This document shows, one piece after another, positions 3,064-14,759 of a DNA stretch of 64,000 nt. The position numbers and the translations under genes were made by a program. A model generated the notes under the pieces. That model ran no database searches, was not told where the DNA came from, and saw nothing but the letters and a program-made list of their open reading frames with translations. The number at the start of each line of letters is the position of its first letter. Position 1 is the stretch's first letter. The DNA lies in the NCBI RefSeq assembly GCF_000380165.1, contig NZ_KB904735.1, positions 116,721-180,720 of the forward strand, given 5' to 3'. This stretch comes from Wenjunlia vitaminophila DSM 41686 (GTDB lineage: Bacteria > Actinomycetota > Actinomycetes > Streptomycetales > Streptomycetaceae).

Positions 3064-4212
3064 TCAGGGAGCGGCCGCGCCGACCGCGGAGAACCGCTCC
3101 TCCACGTGGTCAAGCGCGAGGCGCAACGCCCCGGTGGTGATCGCCGCGTCCCCCAGCGCCGACAGCTCCACCCGGGGCGGACGCAGACAGCAGCGGGCGA
3201 GTCGGGTGCGCAGTGGCTCCAGCACGTCGTCCAGGCCCGCCGCCCAGCCGCCGACCACCACCACCTCCGGATCGAGGGCGACGACCAGCGCGCCCACGTC
3301 CTGCACCAGGCGGCCCACGAACCGGTCCACGGCGCTCCCGGCCACCGGATCGCCCTCCCGGGCCAGCCGGAACACCTCGGTCACGGCGTTCTCGTCCAGC
3401 GGGTGCAGGGGCTGGCCGGTGGTGGACAGCAGCCGCTCCGGGGTCGCCCCGAGCCCCAGCAGGTGCAGGGCGCCGATCTCCCCGGCGGCGCCGCCGTGGC
3501 CGCGGTGGATCCTCCCGTTGATCAGGGAGCCGGCCCCGGGGCTCAGCCCGGCCAGCACGAACACCAGGTCGTCCGAGCCGGCCGCGGCGCCCTTCCAGCG
3601 CTCGGCGACCGCGGCCAGGTTGGCGTCGTTCTCCACCAGCACAGGACAGGGGAAGGCCCCGCGCAGTCGCTCGCCCAACGGCAGCTCCGTCCAGCCGGGG
3701 AGCGCCGTGCACAGCCGCACCGTCCCGTTCGCCTCGACGATCCCCGGCGTGCCCACCCCCACCGCGCGGAGGGTGTCCCGGGCCACCCCGGCCCGCTGGA
3801 GCAGCTCGGTCACCACCTGGTCGAGCAGGCCCAGCCGGTCCTCCGCGGAGGCCGACTCGGCCACCTGCCTGGTGTGCGAGCCCAGCAGGCGTCCACTGAG
3901 GTCGGACAGCAGGGTGTGGACCCGGTGCACACCGACCTCGACACCGAGCAGGTGCCCGGACTCGGCGTGGAAGCGGTAGCGGCGAGCGGGGCGCCCCTGC
4001 CGGCGGTTGTCCTGCGGCTCCGGCTCGACCTCCACGACCAGGCCGGCCTCGACGAGACCGTCCACCGCGCCCTCCACCGTGGGGCGGGACAGGCCGGTCA
4101 TGCCGACCAGCTCGGTCAGGCTGGAGTGCCGCGTCCCGCGCAGCGCACGCAGGACAACCGCGGAGTTGATCCGCCGCAGCAGGGACGGATCTCCGCCGGT
4201 GAGCTGTCCCAA
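3064..4212 (-). CDS. ROK-family transcriptional regulator (NagC/XylR type)
   Basis: N-terminal HTH (LTELVGMTGLSRPTVEGAVDGL) followed by the ROK sugar-kinase-like fold (GVGTPGIV, ENDANLAAVAE, zinc-motif His and Cys). The ORF-track start at 4377 gives an Arg-rich extension that overlaps the decayed mug remnant. TTG at 4212 is preferred but uncertain. Confidence 0.7.
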   Translation of the reverse strand: MGQLTGGDPSLLRRINSAVVLRALRGTRHSSLTELVGMTGLSRPTVEGAVDGLVEAGLVVEVEPEPQDNRRQGRPARRYRFHAESGHLLGVEVGVHRVHTLLSDLSGRLLGSHTRQVAESASAEDRLGLLDQVVTELLQRAGVARDTLRAVGVGTPGIVEANGTVRLCTALPGWTELPLGERLRGAFPCPVLVENDANLAAVAERWKGAAAGSDDLVFVLAGLSPGAGSLINGRIHRGHGGAAGEIGALHLLGLGATPERLLSTTGQPLHPLDENAVTEVFRLAREGDPVAGSAVDRFVGRLVQDVGALVVALDPEVVVVGGWAAGLDDVLEPLRTRLARCCLRPPRVELSALGDAAITTGALRLALDHVEERFSAVGAAAP

Positions 4213-4289
4213 CGTCCGACCCTCCCAGCGTTGGCTGGTGACATGTCCCAATGGTGTTCGGTGCGCGGTGCCCGTGCGGAGCCTACCGC

Positions 4290-4554
4290 CGCGTGCGGGG
4301 CGCGGCGAGATGACCGGACCCCTCCGGGACCCACCGCGGGCACGCCCCGGGGCCGCGCCCCGGCGAGCGCGAGCCACGTCGGGCGCAGCCGAAGCACCTT
4401 CTCGGTGAGCGCCCTGCCCCCCTCGATGAACTCCTCGGGTGAGAGCTCGTCGGCCCGCGGTCGCCCGGCGCAGACGTTGGTCAGGCCCAGGCCCAGGCCG
4501 AGACCGACCAGTTCGCCCTGCTCGTCCGATCGCATCAGCAGGGGGTGAAGCCAG
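4290..4554 (-). pseudogene. mug: C-terminal remnant of G/U-mismatch DNA glycosylase (mug), multiply frameshifted
   Basis: The translation (P)LLMRSDEQGELVGLGLGLGLTNVCAGRPRADELSPEEFIEGGRALTEKVLRLRPTWLALAG aligns with the E. coli Mug middle region ([51 protein letters not shown]). The expected VLPNPSG-like C-terminus is only recoverable in another frame (RWVPEGSG). Confidence 0.55.
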
Positions 4555-4565
4555 AGCGGTGCATA
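4543..4565. repeat. left junction motif GGGTGAAG-N9-TGCATA of the low-GC insertion
   Basis: The same GGGTGAAG and TGCATA words recur at 6653-6666. Both flank the two mug fragments. Confidence 0.4.
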
Positions 4566-4660
4566 TGTACCCGACCTTCTGTCCACGAACTCAAGCCCAC
4601 TCACGGGGTGGATCTGGAAGACTCCTGCGCGGTACCTAGCTGACATCAGTCCAGGGACGC

Positions 4661-6238
4661 TTGAGGGGGCAGGGAGCCGCTGTGGAATGGATCTCCATCG
4701 TTTTGATCATTCTGGTGGTGCTGGTCCTCATCACCTTGGTCAAGGCGATCCATGTCATTCCGCAGGGCAGCGCCGCCATCGTGGAACGTTTCGGCCGCTA
4801 CACCCGCACCCTCAACGCTGGCCTGAGCATCGTTGTCCCGTTCATCGACAAGGTCGGCGACCGCATCGACCTCCGTGAGCAGGTCGTCCCCTTCCCATCG
4901 CAGCTCGCGATCATCCAGGACAACCTGGTCGTTGATATCGACACCGTCGTCTACTACCAGGTGACCGATGTCCGCGCTGCGACCTACGAAGTCGCCAGCT
5001 ACATCCAGGCGATCGAGCAGCTCACTGTCACCACGCTACGCAGCGTCGTCGGTGGCATGAACCTCGAACGAACCCTCACCTCGCGGGAGGAAATCAACGC
5101 GACCCTGCGCGGCGTCCTCGACGAGGCCACCGGCAAGTGGGGCATCCGCGTCAACCGCGTCGAACTCAAGGGCATCTTGCCGCCCACTTCCATCCAGGAC
5201 TCGATGGAGAAGCAGATGCGCGCCGATCGTGACAAGCGCACCGCGATCCTCACCGCCGAAGGCGAGAGGCATGCCGCGCTGTTGAAAGCGGAAACCGAAC
5301 GCGACGTGGCCACCATCCTCGCTGGAGGGAGCGGAGCGATGCGCGGGATACCGCAGTCGCCCGTCCAGGCCGGTCCCACACCTGGACATCAGCCGTTGCT
5401 GCAGGACGATCCTCGCCGCGTCGGCCGTTACCACCTGACGGCTCGGCTGGGCCAAGGGGGGATGGGGACGGTCTATCTCGGCCAGTCCCCCGGGCAGCGC
5501 CTGGTCGCGGTCAAAGTCATCCGGTCGGAGTTCGCTACGGACCCAACATTCCGAAAGCGGTTCGCCCGCGAGATCGAAGCCGTACGCCGTGTCGGCGGCT
5601 TCCACACCGCGCCAGTGGTTGATGCCGACCCCCACGGCGACCCGCCCTGGCTGGCGACCGAGTACATCCCCGGCCCGTCACTGCACGACGTCCTCGGGCA
5701 GCAGGGTGCCCTTCCCCCAAGGACCCTGCAGACCCTCGCTGTCGGTATCGCCGAAACGCTCGAAGGCATCCACGCCCGCGACATCATCCACCGCGACCTC
5801 AAACCCAGCAACATCATCATCTCTAGCTCAGGTCCTCGCATCATCGACTTCGGCGTCGCCCGAGCCCTCGACGGCACCGCACTTACCCGTACCAACTACG
5901 TCATCGGCACACAGGGGTTCCTCGCTCCGGAACAGCTCACCGGTGCGTCGATCACGCCTGCCGCGGATCTCTACGCCTTCGGCATGGTGCTGTGCCATGC
6001 CGCGGGAGCCACGCCGCTCACCGGCAGTGAATCCCTTGAGTCCGCCCTCAGTCTGTTGCCCTCTCGGTTCGTCGGCGTTATCACCCGGTGCCTCGATCAT
6101 GACCCGAGCCACCGTCCGACGCCCACCGAGGTGCTCGAACTGCTCTCCCAGAACGATGCATCATCCGAAGACTGGCTGCCGATTCCGGTACGCACGATGG
6201 TCGACCTGTACAACGCCCCTACTGTCTCGGCACCTTGA
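4661..6238 (+). CDS. SPFH/band-7 (stomatin or flotillin-like) domain fused to a Hanks-type Ser/Thr protein kinase domain; N-terminal TM anchor
   Basis: Residues 1-230 contain a TM helix WISIVLIILVVLVLITLV and an SPFH core (IVERFGRY..., EAETERDVAT). From about 250: Gly loop LGQGGMGTVY, VAVKVI, HRDLKPSNI, DFGVA, GTQGFLAPE. All catalytic kinase motifs are intact. Local GC is about 60 % against about 72 % in the flanks. Confidence 0.8.
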   Translation: MRGQGAAVEWISIVLIILVVLVLITLVKAIHVIPQGSAAIVERFGRYTRTLNAGLSIVVPFIDKVGDRIDLREQVVPFPSQLAIIQDNLVVDIDTVVYYQVTDVRAATYEVASYIQAIEQLTVTTLRSVVGGMNLERTLTSREEINATLRGVLDEATGKWGIRVNRVELKGILPPTSIQDSMEKQMRADRDKRTAILTAEGERHAALLKAETERDVATILAGGSGAMRGIPQSPVQAGPTPGHQPLLQDDPRRVGRYHLTARLGQGGMGTVYLGQSPGQRLVAVKVIRSEFATDPTFRKRFAREIEAVRRVGGFHTAPVVDADPHGDPPWLATEYIPGPSLHDVLGQQGALPPRTLQTLAVGIAETLEGIHARDIIHRDLKPSNIIISSSGPRIIDFGVARALDGTALTRTNYVIGTQGFLAPEQLTGASITPAADLYAFGMVLCHAAGATPLTGSESLESALSLLPSRFVGVITRCLDHDPSHRPTPTEVLELLSQNDASSEDWLPIPVRTMVDLYNAPTVSAP

Positions 6239-6632
6239 GCCAAGTATGTGCTCGACACCTCCAGTTCAGAGAAGCCTGCATCGCCCGATGCTTCAGATCA
6301 ATCCGAAAATGCTCGCGTGTCCGGATGAATTGGAGGAAGATCTTCAGGCCAGGTGAAAGAGGGCGGAGAGCGAGAAGTGGCTCGGTGAGTCGACGGCATC
6401 ACCTGACATTGACGTTCCTGCGCGCCAAGCGTGACGAAGCCCAACGGTTCCACCGCCGTGGCCCTGTCGATCTTGGCTTGCCGCACCCACGGCCTCCGGA
6501 GGCATGATGACCACCTCAACCAACCTGCCAACACCCCAGCCGTGCAGACGCTACCCGGGCACCGGACTCGTGATGCCTACTGTCGACCAAGCTCGTTGAG
6601 CAGGCCCACAGCTCAACTCATTCTGGAACGAT

Positions 6633-6828
6633 CAGTAAGTCGTCACTCGTCCGGGTGAAGTGCATAGGTGCAGGGTCGGCCAGAACCGGTTGCCCCGCCG
6701 GGCGAAGTGGTGGCCGGTGGCCGCGGACCACAGACCGGTGTTGATCCCGCAGAACAGCACCCGGAGCCCGGGGCCAGGACGTCGGGGATGACCTGGTCAC
6801 GGGCCGCGGCCAGCACCTCGGGGCCCAT
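6633..6828 (-). pseudogene. mug: N-terminal remnant of mug (G/U-mismatch DNA glycosylase) with a frameshift
   Basis: [23 protein letters not shown] then a -1 shift gives [32 protein letters not shown], matching the E. coli Mug N-terminus (DILAPGLRVVFCGINPGL...NRFW). The remnant ends at a stop right at the insertion junction. Confidence 0.6.
6653..6666. repeat. right junction motif GGGTGAAG-TGCATA of the low-GC insertion
   Basis: Direct repeat of the words at 4543-4565. Original mug sequence resumes immediately after it (ggtgcagggtcggccag = ...LHL codons). Confidence 0.4.
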
Positions 6829-6911
6829 CCGCCGGCGCGTCCCGACCCGCGAGGACGTCCGGGGGCGACCGGCAGGGCCGGACCCGGAGGTGGCATCGCT
6901 GACCGCGTCGG

Positions 6912-8345
6912 TCACAAGATGGCCCCCGGCACGTACCTGGAGGCCTCCGGGTGGCTGGCGGTGACCTGCTCGATCCGCTCCAGCACGGCCGCGACCTGCG
7001 CCGCCGCGGCACCGGTGAACGACAGTCGGTCCGCCATCAGCGCGCCCAGGGCGGACCGGTCCAGCGGGATGCGGTCGTCCTCGGCGAGCCGGTCCAACAG
7101 CTCGTTGTGCTGGACGCCCTTCTCCCGCATCGCCAGCGCGGAGGCCACCGCGTGCTCCTTGATCACCTCGTGGGCCTCCTCCCGGCCCACCCCGGCCCGC
7201 ACCGCGGCCATGAGGACCTTGGTGGTGGCCAGGAACGGCAGGTACCGGTCGAGCTCCCTGGCGATCACGGCCGGGAACGCCCCGAACTCGTCGAGGACCG
7301 TCAGGAACGTCTCCAGCAGGCCGTCCAGCGCGAAGAAGGCGTCCGGGAGCGCGACCCGGCGCACCACGGAGCAGGAGACGTCACCCTCGTTCCACTGGTC
7401 CCCGGCGAGCTCCCCGGCCATCGAGGCGTAGCCCCGCAGCACCACGGCGAGGCCGTTGACCCGTTCGCAGGAGCGGGTGTTCATCTTGTGCGGCATCGCC
7501 GAAGAACCCACCTGGCCCGGCTGGAAACCCTCGGTGACCAGCTCGTGCCCGGCCATCAGCCGGATCGTCCTGGCGATCCCGGACGGGGCGGCGGCGAGCT
7601 GCACCAGGGCGCTCAACACGTCGAAGTCCAGGGAACGCGGATAGACCTGGCCCACCGAGGTCAGGGTCCGGGCGAAGCCGAGGTGCTCGGCCACCCTGCG
7701 CTCGAGCTCGGCGAGCCGCCCCAGGTCCCCGTCGAGGAGGTCCAGCATGTCCTGGGCGGTGCCGACCGGACCCTTGACGCCGCGCAGCGGATAGCGGTCG
7801 ATCAGCTCGGTGAGCCGTTCGAACGCCACGAGCAGCTCGTCGGCGCCGGTCGCGAACCGCTTGCCCAGGGTGGTCGCCTGCGCCGCCACGTTGTGCGACC
7901 GGCCCGCCATCACCACCTCGGCGTGCTCGGCGGCGAGGCACCCGAGCCGGGCGAGGACCGCCACCACCCGGTCCCGCACGTGCTCCAGGGACAGCTTGAC
8001 CTGCAACTGCTCGACGTTCTCGGTCAGGTCCCGGGAGGTCATGCCCTTGTGCACCTGCTCGTGGCCGGCCAGGGCGTTGAACTCCTCGATGCGGGCCTTG
8101 ACGTCGTGGCGGGTGACCCTCTCCCGCTCCGCGATCGAGTCCAGGTCGACGGCCTCGACGACGCGTTCGTAGTCGGCGACCGCACCGTCCGGCACCGTCA
8201 CCCCGAGGTCCGCCTGTGCGCGCAGGACGGCCAGCCACAGGCGGCGCTCGAGGACCACCTTGTGCTCGGGGGACCACAGGGTGATGAGCTCGGCCGAGGC
8301 GTAACGGCTGGCCAGGACGTTCGGGATGCGGGGCTTTGAGGTCAC
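6912..8345 (-). CDS. purB: adenylosuccinate lyase
   Basis: Fumarate-lyase superfamily signature GSSAMPHKMN, 477 aa, typical PurB N-terminus MTSKPRIPNVLASRYAS. Confidence 0.9.
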   Translation of the reverse strand: MTSKPRIPNVLASRYASAELITLWSPEHKVVLERRLWLAVLRAQADLGVTVPDGAVADYERVVEAVDLDSIAERERVTRHDVKARIEEFNALAGHEQVHKGMTSRDLTENVEQLQVKLSLEHVRDRVVAVLARLGCLAAEHAEVVMAGRSHNVAAQATTLGKRFATGADELLVAFERLTELIDRYPLRGVKGPVGTAQDMLDLLDGDLGRLAELERRVAEHLGFARTLTSVGQVYPRSLDFDVLSALVQLAAAPSGIARTIRLMAGHELVTEGFQPGQVGSSAMPHKMNTRSCERVNGLAVVLRGYASMAGELAGDQWNEGDVSCSVVRRVALPDAFFALDGLLETFLTVLDEFGAFPAVIARELDRYLPFLATTKVLMAAVRAGVGREEAHEVIKEHAVASALAMREKGVQHNELLDRLAEDDRIPLDRSALGALMADRLSFTGAAAAQVAAVLERIEQVTASHPEASRYVPGAIL

Positions 8346-12294: not shown

Positions 12295-13462
12295 TGGGTG
12301 CCAGGTCCGTCCCGGCTCCCCGGCGGCGCACCGCGACCAGGTCGGGACGGGCGACACCGGTCGCACCCGGCGCCGCTGCCGGCGCGTCCCCTTCGGCCGT
12401 GCCCGCGGCAACCTGCGTGTCCCCGTCCTGCCGGGGCGGGGACACCTGGTGCGGGGACACCCGGTGCGGGGGCAGGGTGACCTCGTCGCTGCCCTCCACG
12501 GTGAACCCGGCATCGGCGATCATGTCCAGGTCCGCCCGCCCGGCCTGTCCCTCACTCGTCAGGTAGTCACCCAGGAAGATCGAGTTCGCCAGGTGCAGGG
12601 CCAGTGGCTGGAGGGACCGCAGGTGCAGCTCCCGGCCGCCGGCGAGGCGCACCTCGACGTCCGGGAAGACGAACCGGGTCATGGCCAGGATGCGCAGGCA
12701 CCGTTGCGGGGTCAGGTTCCACTCGCTGCCTAGCGGGGTGCCCTCGAACGGGATCAGGAAGTTCACCGGCACCGAGTCGGGGTCGAGCTCGCGCAGGGCG
12801 AACACCACGTCCACCAGGTCCTCGTCGGACTCGCCCATGCCGGCGATCAACCCCGAGCACGCCGAGAGCCCGGCTGCCCGGGCCTGCTGGACGGTGCTCA
12901 CCCGGTCGCCGAAGTCGTGGGTGGTGCAGATGTCGCCGTAGGTGGCCTCGGAGGTGTTCAGGTTGTGGTTGTAGGCGTCCGCGCCGGCCTCCCGCAGCTT
13001 CCCGGCCTGTCCCTCGGAGAGCAGGCCAAGACAGGCGCACACCTCCACGCCCTCGTTCTGCTCCTTGATGGCGGCGATCGTCTTCGACACCCGCTCCACG
13101 TCCCGGTCGGTGGGGCCGCGGCCGGACGCCACCAGGCACACGCGCTTCGCTCCGCCGGCCACCCCGGCGCAGGCCACCGCCGCGGCCTCCTCGGGCTTCA
13201 ACCAGCTGTACTTCAGGATCCCCGTGCTGGACCCCAACCGCTGTGAGCAGTACGAACAGTCCTCGGGGCACAACCCGGACTTGAGGTTGACCAGGTAGTT
13301 CAGCTTCACCCGGCGGCCGAACCAGTGGTTCCGCACCCTGCCGGCGGCGGCCACCACGTCCAGCGTCTCCGCGTCGGACGCGCCGAGCACCGCCAGCGCC
13401 TCCTCACGGGTCGGCGGCTGCCGGCGCAGTCCCTTGTCCACGAGCGTGTTCAACAGGTCCAT
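12287..13462 (-). CDS. bioB: biotin synthase (radical SAM)
   Basis: CPEDCSYC radical-SAM motif plus the second cluster Cys set. Overlaps the bioA start by 8 nt. The C-terminal Ala/Pro-rich tail is unusually long. Confidence 0.85.
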
Positions 13463-13478
13463 GGCCTCAGATCCTACG

Positions 13479-13494
13479 GACCGGACAACCGGTC
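13479..13494. promoter_or_regulatory. inverted repeat GACCGG-acaa-CCGGTC in the bioB/bioF divergent intergenic region
   Basis: Perfect 6-4-6 palindrome 17 nt upstream of the bioB start. A CAAGATCGCTTG near-palindrome and a TGTGTACA word lie further into the 150 nt intergenic region. Confidence 0.25.
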
Positions 13495-13613
13495 ACCAGT
13501 GACGGAAAGAACAAGATCGCTTGATGGGCATGTGTACATCACGACAGTCCCAAGGTGGCTCGAGCCGCGCTACGTTGCCTGACGCAACCCCTGACGACCT
13601 CGAGGAACGAACC

Positions 13614-14759
13614 ATGGCTGAGGGCCCCTTCGACTGGCTCGACGAGCACGCCTGGCGTCGCGGCCGAGCAGGTCTGACCAGGACCCTGCGACCGAGGGCC
13701 GCCGACTCCCCGGTGCTCGACCTGGCGAGCAACGACTACCTCGGACTCACCCGCCACCCGCGGGTCACCCAGGGGGCGGCCTCGGCCGCGCTGCGGTGGG
13801 GCGCCGGGGCCACCGGCTCCCGACTGGTCACCGGCACGACCGCGCTGCACGCCGAGCTCGAGGCGGACCTCGCCGCCTGGTGCGGGGCCGAGGCCGCGCT
13901 CGTCTTCTCCTCCGGGTACGCCGCCAACATGGCCGCCGTCACCACGCTGACCGGTCCCGGCGCCCTGCTGGTCTCCGACGCCGCCAACCACGCCTCGCTG
14001 ATAGACGGCTGCCGACTGTCCCGGGCGACCACCGCCGTGGTGCCGCACGCCGACCCGGAGGCCGTGCGCAAGGAGTTGGCGGCGCACCCGGGACGGGCCG
14101 TGGTGGTCACCGACGGGGTGTTCTCCGTCAACGGTGACCTGGCGCCGCTGCGCGACCTGGCCGGGGTGTGCCGGCGGGCCGGGGCCGGGCTGCTGGTGGA
14201 CGACGCCCACGGCCTCGGGGTGGTCGGGGAACGCGGCACCGGCGCGGTGGCCGCCGCCGGGCTCGCCGGGGCCCCGGACGTGGTGACCACCGCGGTGCTG
14301 TCCAAGGCCCTGGGCAGCCAGGGCGGAGTGGTGCTCGGCCCCGCCCGGGTGATCAGGCACCTGGTGGACAACGCCAGGACGTTCATCTTCGACACCGCCC
14401 TGGCGCCGGCCGCGGTCGGCGCCGCGCTGGCGGCGCTGCGCCTGCTCCGGGAGGAGCCGGAACGACCGGCCAGGGCGCGCGAGGTCGCCCGGGACCTGTC
14501 CGACCGGCTCGCCGCGGCCGGACTGCGGACCACGGTGCCGGCGGCGGCCGTGGTGTCGGTGCTCGCGCCGTCCCCGCAGTCCGCGGTGGAGTGGGCCGCC
14601 GACTGCCGGGCCCGCGGGGTGGCGGTGGGGTGTTTCCGGCCCCCTTCCGTGCCCGACGGCCTCTCCCGGCTGCGCCTGACCGCCCGCGCCGACCTGACGG
14701 ATGATCAGATCGATCGTGCGGTGGCGGTGATCACCACCACCGCGCCGACGGCTCCCTGA
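13614..14759 (+). CDS. bioF: 8-amino-7-oxononanoate synthase
   Basis: Class-II aminotransferase fold, substrate motif LASNDYLGL, PLP-lysine region TAVLSKALGSQGG. Start chosen at MAEGPFDWLDEHAW because the ORF-track start at 13521 is a non-homologous extension. Confidence 0.8.
   Translation: MAEGPFDWLDEHAWRRGRAGLTRTLRPRAADSPVLDLASNDYLGLTRHPRVTQGAASAALRWGAGATGSRLVTGTTALHAELEADLAAWCGAEAALVFSSGYAANMAAVTTLTGPGALLVSDAANHASLIDGCRLSRATTAVVPHADPEAVRKELAAHPGRAVVVTDGVFSVNGDLAPLRDLAGVCRRAGAGLLVDDAHGLGVVGERGTGAVAAAGLAGAPDVVTTAVLSKALGSQGGVVLGPARVIRHLVDNARTFIFDTALAPAAVGAALAALRLLREEPERPARAREVARDLSDRLAAAGLRTTVPAAAVVSVLAPSPQSAVEWAADCRARGVAVGCFRPPSVPDGLSRLRLTARADLTDDQIDRAVAVITTTAPTAP

Follow-up and report, generated by a model that had tools for sequence, protein, structure and literature searches.

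Transposons related to Tn554 that occur in actinobacteria carry an abnormally long tyrosine recombinase paired with one of normal size, and the study describing them (Van Houdt et al. 2012, PMC3414803) does not name a target. Here, we describe an insertion in Wenjunlia vitaminophila DSM 41686 that very probably derives from a site-specific element of this class. It was found in a stretch of 64,000 nucleotides, referred to as the window (NCBI RefSeq assembly GCF_000380165.1, contig NZ_KB904735.1, positions 116,721 to 180,720 of the forward strand), where it splits mug, the gene for a G/U-mismatch DNA glycosylase. The element would have inserted into mug and subsequently decayed to a remnant of 2.1 kb with a single intact gene, which encodes a fusion of an SPFH domain and a protein kinase. 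In its present form the object is of an ordinary kind, i.e. a decayed integrative element in a pseudogene.

Elements that interrupt repair or competence genes are known from several systems, among them Tn554 (radC region), SpyCIM1 (mutL, Streptococcus pyogenes) and the comK prophage of Listeria. The locus resembles these in that the attachment site lies in a conserved housekeeping or repair gene, which the insertion inactivates. In those systems, however, the insertion acts as a reversible switch or leaves the gene functional, whereas mug in the window is irreversibly decayed and shows no sign of excision. CIME-type remnants (ICESt1/ICESt3 family) offer a second comparison. As in these, both junctions are kept together with a repeat while the recombinase has been lost, and accretion and nesting of elements at one site are seen in Streptomyces albidoflavus. 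Conversely, the left arm of the window insert is barely recognisable, and excision from the decayed mug would not restore a working gene.

An interrupted and decayed mug gene

Two minus-strand fragments of mug were located close to where a preliminary description, made from the letters of the DNA, had placed them (6828–6667 and 4563–4359, see Table 1). On this strand, the order is purB, the 5′ part of mug, the insert, the 3′ part of mug and a ROK-family regulator. DNA alignment with intact mug loci delimits the insert to 4564–6666 (2,103 bp). Removal of the insert together with one copy of the direct repeat GGTGCA restores CTG CAC CGC TCT GGC TTC ACC in the mug strand. Intact relatives read CTG CAC CTC TCC GGC TTC ACC at the same place, equal in length and frame, and no mug base was lost or gained at the insertion besides the 6-bp repeat. 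About ten codons had been reckoned missing between the fragments. In fact none are, as the junction is precise and element-encoded sequence had been read as a gap.

The stitched Mug product (121–123 amino acids, aa) aligns with residues 2–108 of E. coli MUG (1MUG; E = 5.5e-21), so that the Mug alignment in the preliminary description holds. The alignment is gapless at the junction, which reads WPTLHRSGFTP and is colinear with the E. coli protein. Identity to intact Streptomyces Mug amounts to 64–69% over residues 1–123, and matches were obtained with Pfam UDG (E = 1e-12) and NCBIfam NF007570 (G/U mismatch-specific DNA glycosylase; E = 3e-26). The score of the latter, 92 bits, falls below the cut-off of 144 bits because the C-terminal third of Mug is missing. 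Homology to the MUG/TDG family (family 2 uracil-DNA glycosylases) extends over the fold. Motif A of MUG (G-I-N-P-G) appears as FCGINTGL at ~6750–6730 on the minus strand, with the catalytic Asn kept and Pro changed to Thr. The gene is no longer an intact single open reading frame (ORF), and the region of the C-terminal LPNPSG motif is lost along with the usual spacer of 0.5 kb before the ROK gene. Homology beyond 4359 is not significant, a borderline VGP..ER trace reaching ~4320 in one of six comparisons.

The remaining coding sequence is damaged as well, in agreement with the further decay proposed earlier. One nucleotide is deleted from the G-run at 6770–6773 and another from the G5 run at 4541–4545, each shifting the frame. 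In addition, the 3′ part carries an in-frame GLGL expansion of 6 nt and a compensated local −1/−2 double shift in ...TNVCAGRPRADEL.... A sister contig of 2,050 bp (L097; separate sequencing run, 99.4% identical) carries this insert without the 6770–6773 deletion, and the frameshift at 6770–6773 therefore arose after the insertion. With two frameshifts, small indels, the 3′ end lost and an insert of 2.1 kb, mug in the window is a pseudogene.

In the 16 Streptomyces loci studied in detail, mug is one uninterrupted ORF directly 3′ of purB, followed in most of them by ROK and GntR genes (purB–mug–ROK–GntR synteny). The preliminary description had considered that relatives might share the two-part arrangement; these 16 do not. 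The purB gene of the window is 80–83% identical to purB genes that adjoin intact mug in Streptomyces loci. Locus L001 of a W. vitaminophila record (GCA_001445835.1, contig LLZU01000010) is 100% identical to the window over 4200–7000. The GC content of the insert is 0.632 compared to 0.744 and 0.742 in its two flanks, and GC at third codon positions is 0.80 in the inserted SPFH-kinase gene compared to 0.94–0.96 in the host genes purB, ROK, GDSL and GntR. Homology, synteny and composition together bear out the earlier claim of a lower-GC, 2.1 kb insert with an SPFH-kinase gene: both the split of mug and the foreign origin of the insert are real.

Recombinase remnant, element ends and recurrence at one mug codon

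The insert had been described as free of any integrase or transposase, and 6240–6660 as devoid of ORFs. Both statements are to be corrected, as 6240–6507 represents the decayed C-terminus of a tyrosine recombinase and is followed by a conserved element end. Combination of the three plus-strand frames gives ...PMLQINPKMLACPDELEEDLQAR*KRAESEKWLGE/VDGIT/LTLTFLRAKRDEAQRFHRRGPVDLGLPHPRPPEA. The search for a degraded integrase that had been suggested for this region was productive: in tblastn the remnant peptide matches genes annotated as “site-specific integrase” or “recombinase” on 63 actinobacterial plasmids, with 60–69% identity and E-values down to 2e-22. The plasmid hosts of these long-recombinase relatives are Streptomyces, Rhodococcus, Mycobacterium, Arthrobacter, Gordonia and Nocardioides. 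The match covers residues 693–794 of an 803-aa plasmid integrase whose Phage_integrase domain lies at 470–662 and whose preceding gene encodes a 404-aa tyrosine recombinase; only residues ~715–803 are retained in the window. Full-length relatives of the remnant are tyrosine recombinases of 692–842 aa (Pfam Phage_integrase), each adjoining a co-directional one of 398–418 aa. A gene for the short recombinase was not found in the window insert.

The closest relative of the remnant is a 73-aa ORF of S. albidoflavus (P0121, 89% identical), which lies at the same locus. Compared to this intact ORF, the window shows a CGA to TGA change at ~6353, single-nucleotide deletions at ~6389 and ~6401, and a 4-bp deletion at ~6285. 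At the DNA level the two remnants are 87.5% identical, whereas the adjacent mug and purB DNA is 73% identical. This difference points to horizontal spread and independent insertions rather than to shared ancestry. The right end of the insert is likewise homologous to the S. albidoflavus insert end over ~90 bp, the last 40 bp being nearly identical. Between window positions 6552 and 6578, ~4.1 kb of the S. albidoflavus element is missing, after which the last 89 bp of the element follow. Towards the left end of the window insert, the SPFH-kinase gene and its upstream region take the place of the short recombinase gene and of ~700 codons of the long one.

The junction was compared in five readable loci from three genera, namely the window, S. 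albidoflavus (L091), S. lunaelactis (L095), Streptomyces sp. NPDC018693 (L096) and Actinacidiphila soli (L099). In all five, the terminal 13 bp of the element (TGCACTTCACCCG) directly follow the same mug codon, and both the position and the orientation of the insertion relative to mug are identical. Among 99 fetched loci, those with intact mug included, the 19-mer CTTCTCTGCACTTCACCCG is confined to these junctions. With a profile of two chimeric Mug N-termini, truncated Mug ORFs were recovered that represent at least eight sequence clusters and all switch at the same residue to LLCTSPxRV; S. lunaelactis, NPDC018693 and A. soli are among them. The chimeric tail of the window is also present in P0124 to P0131. 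By contrast with the constant position, the inserts differ wholly in content between genomes. Metagenome scans with the right-end sequence gave no match to a 35-mer and one chance match, inside an unrelated ORF, to a 20-mer; a scan of viral contigs with the junction 19-mer gave no match. Of the mechanisms that the preliminary description had left side by side, a decayed island with an att-like core is upheld and microhomology is not, the right end and the junction recurring in four other genomes.

An intact element of 4.4 kb is seen in NPDC018693, where the order is purB, the 5′ part of mug (108 aa), ORF156, the long recombinase (692 aa, L096 10940–13018), the short recombinase (398 aa, 13380–14576) and the 3′ part of mug (136 aa, intact to the stop). 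Both recombinase genes lie on the strand opposite to mug; the long one has its 3′ end towards the 5′ fragment of mug, and the remnant in the window is oriented alike. Both junctions carry TGC(A/T)TCT, in register with TGCACC of the window. From these, attP can be reconstructed as ...GTAGTGCAGATAACTG-TGCTTCT-CTGCACTTCACCCGATCGG..., with intact mug providing attB (...TTCTGGCCGGTGCTGCATCTGTCCGGGTTCACCCC...).

In S. albidoflavus (CP170353), P0121 lies 4 kb from purB, and purB is followed by an 83-aa Mug fragment with the same element-encoded tail. The remnant is succeeded by a 346-aa ORF (overlapping stop and start), a PtuA/PtuB-like pair and the right end of the element. The Septu-like pair (L091 9754–12125) matches the PADLOC models PDC-M01A/PtuA (E = 2e-155) and PDC-M01B (E = 2e-69) over the full length. 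The long recombinase gene of this element is itself interrupted (L091 1154–8222): a second recombinase-pair element, inverted and with a HAD-like gene, is nested in it at ...HACIRC|PML..., and P0121 represents the displaced last 73 codons of the interrupted gene. The 4-bp deletion of the window (~6285) sits exactly at this split point. The local sequence of the recombinase gene, CCTGCATCCGCT, resembles the mug site CCTGCACCGCT, and a secondary attachment site may therefore exist in the long recombinase gene. The S. albidoflavus locus, whose left mug junction lies outside the fetched DNA, showed no repeated att-like sites. Two loci have no recombinase left: S. lunaelactis (L095 10286–13625), with DUF899, a 140-aa ORF, an AAA/acetyltransferase protein and a downstream mug reduced to its last 40 codons, and A. 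soli (L099 5227–7185), with four small unannotated ORFs.

The right arm of the element (TCT-GCA-CTTCACCCG) resembles the mug sequence that it replaces (TCTCCGGCTTCACCCC). This resemblance accounts for the words GGGTGAAG and TGCATA noted earlier at the junctions; one copy of GGGTGAAG represents the Gly-Phe-Thr-Pro codons of mug, the other the conserved element terminus. Judged from the sequence, these words are a likeness between attP and attB rather than microhomology, and the junction repeats fit a shared overlap region rather than a duplication from a staggered cut. A candidate second copy of the left end (TATGTGCTCGACACC at 6247–6261) was rejected, as 77 of 300 shuffles reach the best observed score, which corresponds to chance level.

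The following course is proposed. An element with a short and an unusually long tyrosine recombinase would insert, presumably by action of this pair, at the Leu-His codons of the conserved stretch NRFWP-x-LH-x-SGFTP in mug. Its attachment site resembles mug, the element end TGCAC-TTCACCC mimicking CTGCAC...TTCACCC of the gene. Strand exchange, probably within ~6–7 bp (TGCACC), would leave the hexamer at both junctions. Mug is cut off after codon ~54 and gains an element-encoded tail. Decay would then remove the short recombinase gene, most of the long one and ~4 kb of cargo beside the right end, in whichever order, so as to leave a non-autonomous remnant of 2.1 kb with one intact gene, that of the SPFH-kinase, and its own conserved upstream region. 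The mug gene, already dead, gathered two frameshifts, small indels and the 3′ deletion.

Several points weigh against this reading. Tn554 reportedly makes no target duplication, according to Murphy's work, and the window has a repeat of 6 bp. The left arm of the window resembles that of the NPDC018693 element only weakly over ~13 bp, and homology of the region upstream of the SPFH-kinase to S. bingchenggensis begins 5 bp from the left junction; the original left arm is therefore barely recognisable. The four other genomes read CTT CTC at the junction compared to CAC CTA in the window, so that the overlap sequence differs among insertions and the cut positions are uncertain. Neither recombinase activity nor an excision product nor an empty site in the same species was seen. 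Lastly, relatedness of the recombinases to TnpA and TnpB of Tn554 is proposed from their architecture and from PMC3414803.

Table 1 Features of the mug locus (window coordinates)
Feature	Position	Strand	Basis or remark
ROK-family regulator, conserved downstream neighbour of mug	3064..4212	-	Pfam ROK; gene call in L001; synteny
Residue of mug 3′ end and intergenic region	4213..4358	-	without significant Mug homology
mug 3′ part (RSGFTP/LLMRSDEQ...RLRPTWLALAG)	4359..4563	-	translation, homology to intact Mug
Left copy of 6-bp direct repeat GGTGCA	4558..4563		read from sequence
Left end of insert and conserved region 5′ of SPFH-kinase gene	4564..4681	+	S. bingchenggensis homology from 4569, 5 bp from junction
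Intact SPFH(Band_7)-Ser/Thr protein kinase fusion gene	4682..6238	+	518 aa from GTG 4682, or 525 aa from TTG 4661
Decayed C-terminus of long tyrosine recombinase, last ~85–90 codons	6240..6507	+	tblastn; no catalytic domain left
First ~15 codons (frameshifted) of homologue of S. albidoflavus 346-aa cargo ORF	6507..6552	+	alignment
Conserved right end of element; terminal 12-mer GGGTGAAGTGCA at 6653–6664	6578..6666	+	homologous to S. albidoflavus insert end, L091 12347–12432
Right copy of 6-bp direct repeat GGTGCA (TGCACC in mug sense); putative crossover/overlap region	6667..6672		read from sequence
mug 5′ part, codons 1 to ~54	6667..6828	-	frame continues into element-encoded tail
purB (adenylosuccinate lyase), conserved upstream neighbour of mug	6912..8345	-	Pfam Lyase_1 and ADSL_C

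Outside the insert, the DNA from the purB stop to the mug start (window 6830–6911) exceeds the corresponding spacer of Streptomyces relatives by ~70 bp; in these, the genes lie almost end to end. The stretch 4200–6900 matched no Rfam family and showed no terminal inverted repeat and no convincing promoter or terminator.

The SPFH-kinase gene and the history of the insert

The cargo protein consists of an N-terminal transmembrane helix, a Band_7 domain (residues 32–202 in 525-aa numbering; Pfam E = 2e-38) and a protein kinase domain (Pkinase, E = 8e-39). The latter is a complete Hanks domain with the motifs GxGxxG, VAVK, HRDLKPSN, DFG and APE. One public annotation gives only a 299-aa “serine/threonine-protein kinase” for 4682–6238 (P0020, 100% identical, 57% of the ORF), while a single open frame spans the SPFH domain and the kinase, and a different gene call has 518 aa. 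An exact look-up of the protein gave no match, and the public gene call starts at GTG 4682. About 20 homologues of the same architecture were found in Streptomyces, Kitasatospora and Yinghuangia (60–83% identity), in unrelated and often accessory neighbourhoods. The SPFH half is ~80% identical to an ordinary Streptomyces SPFH protein, and free-standing kinases of up to 84% identity exist. The whole cassette, from 4569 to 6230, corresponds to one in S. bingchenggensis with 84% DNA and 83% protein identity, and a search of plasmids for the fusion gene returned only one degraded copy. Between the window and L097, the SPFH-kinase gene differs by three substitutions in 1042 bp, two of them synonymous, and the remnant by five in 428 bp. 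The low count in the kinase gene fits continued constraint, with the reservation that the numbers are small.

The kinase domain matches the PADLOC models for PD-T4-6 (E = 2e-56) and mad6 (E = 2e-49). These matches are limited to residues ~250–500, i.e. to the generic Hanks domain, and membership in a PADLOC defence system was not accepted. NCBIfam gave partial AfsK- and PknB-like matches far below the cut-offs. The protein can be compared to the Hanks-type kinases listed for defence in PD-T4-6, MADS (Mad6) and BREX (PglW), of which the first two give the kinase-domain matches, and to SPFH/stomatin-family membrane scaffolds; a sister element carries the Septu-like PDC-M01 pair. It differs in that the likeness to the kinases is confined to their generic domain, the fusion as such has no PADLOC model, and partner genes are absent.

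Upstream of SPFH-kinase genes of three genera, the conserved motif TCAyGGGGTrGATCTGGAAGAmTCCTGC was observed, which contains AGATCT and has no Rfam match (window 4601–4630, L004 ~5925–5955, L007 ~5925–5950). It may represent an operator or a 5′ leader. In two Streptomyces genomes (L005 and L006, 1667–5736), an SPFH-kinase homologue lies beside a WhiJ-type trio (HATPase_c_2, HTH_31-DUF5753, DUF397), with Vsr, HNH and DUF6551 genes or a helicase–MZB pair also close; this neighbourhood looks like a defence island. In Kitasatospora sp. NPDC057904 (L007), a 150-codon C-terminal fragment of a long recombinase (5361–5860; 71% identical to plasmid integrases, one frameshift) stands directly 5′ of the SPFH-kinase gene (6001–7488), the order being reversed compared to the window. 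The Kitasatospora locus suggests a recurrent association of SPFH-kinase genes with long-recombinase elements. No recognisable recombinase was present near the SPFH-kinase gene in three other genomes, and the upstream peptide in S. bingchenggensis gave weak integrase matches only (E ~0.01), which are treated as suggestive. A junction between recombinase remnant and SPFH-kinase resembling attP was not found in L007 or S. bingchenggensis; the sequences there are without similarity to the right end of the window insert.

How the gene came to lie 5 bp from the left junction bears on the history of the insert. The recombinase-pair element may have come first, with the SPFH-kinase cassette arriving afterwards, through nesting or through recombination with a different element, and replacing the short and the 5′ part of the long recombinase gene; the kinase would then not be original cargo. 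We regard such a two-step origin as a serious possibility that falls somewhat short of an even chance. In line with it, the cassette (4569–6238) is sharply bounded, directly adjoins the remnant and has homologues in unrelated contexts, and in L007 it stands immediately 3′ of another long-recombinase C-terminal fragment. Nesting of a second recombinase pair has moreover occurred in the long recombinase of S. albidoflavus, at the very spot of the 4-bp deletion in the window. Still, the cassette is not bordered by ends of a second element or by att-like repeats, a single internal deletion in an element carrying the gene beside its left end would give the same structure, and an intact element that contains the cassette was not found in any genome.

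Illegitimate capture, in which end-joining or microhomology would have sealed a double-strand break in mug with a random foreign fragment of 2.1 kb, is very improbable. It would explain why the insert lacks an intact recombinase, the short repeats GGTGCA and TGCATA at both junctions could pass for microhomology, and the left junction resembles internal sequences no more than expected by chance. However, a random fragment would hardly have a right end that is conserved over ~90 bp in S. albidoflavus, where the insertion is independent, put the same terminal 13 bp precisely at one mug codon in five loci of three genera, carry a recombinase remnant 160 bp from this end in the orientation of the intact NPDC018693 element, and leave mug without a base lost or added beyond the 6-bp repeat. 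Least credible of all is an old, vertically inherited split of mug with an intervening gene, as the second strain or assembly with the identical arrangement (L097, 99.4% identity) is essentially the same species, mug is uninterrupted in the 16 Streptomyces loci, most of them purB–mug–ROK, the inserts at the site differ completely between genomes and are foreign in composition here, and element DNA is more alike between genera than the flanking DNA. Site-specific insertion of a Tn554-related element, followed by decay, is the reading carried forward here.

Class of the element and implications

The insert is best called a defective derivative of an actinobacterial Tn554-related element, CIME-like in form. 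Adjacent, co-directional genes for a short (~350–420 aa) and a long (611–842 aa) recombinase are present in L096 and L091 and absent from the window, and since its sister elements have such a pair, the window insert is a derivative rather than a complete member of the class. With the actinobacterial elements it shares the C-terminus of a long recombinase, whose relatives have a plasmid host range as in PMC3414803. It differs from them in that it has no recombinase and cannot move by itself, and in that its target is a defined position in mug. Insertion that is specific in site and orientation, in five loci of three genera, is a trait in common with Tn554 itself, whereas the 6-bp repeat around the insert and the lack of any visible TnpC-like gene set the window apart. 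Tn554 is marked by the absence of terminal inverted repeats and of a target duplication; in the window no convincing terminal inverted repeat was found, and direct repeats flank the insert there (6 bp) and in L096 (TGC(A/T)TCT). As expected for an att-flanked remnant, both junctions are retained and the recombinase is lost, although the left arm is only weakly like that of L096.

The class of element is known and the mechanism of insertion largely resolved, while the attachment site in mug has not been described before. Within the library of papers searched, none treats mug as an integration site, describes the SPFH-kinase fusion or links such fusions to defence. A wider proposal, which we consider speculative and rather unlikely in its entirety, is that the NRFWPxLHxSGFTP stretch of mug serves Streptomycetaceae as a dedicated attachment site for a family of Tn554-related recombinase-pair elements, which would be small carriers of defence genes such as the Septu-like PDC-M01 pair of S. 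albidoflavus, that the SPFH-kinase would be a new single-gene, membrane-anchored module of defence or abortive infection, and that each insertion would knock out a uracil/mismatch glycosylase. The defence reading of the kinase is suggested by the cargo of the sister elements and by generic kinase matches.

For annotation, the locus is a mug pseudogene with a defective integrative element instead of three unrelated features, and the “299-aa kinase” is a 518-aa SPFH-kinase fusion. The poorly characterised Tn554-related elements of actinobacteria gain a concrete attB, a reconstructable attP and, in L096, an intact reference of 4.4 kb, which makes recombination testable. Moreover, the purB–mug–ROK interval deserves attention when accessory and defence genes are sought in Streptomycetaceae, and in strains with an occupied site the loss of Mug is caused by the element.

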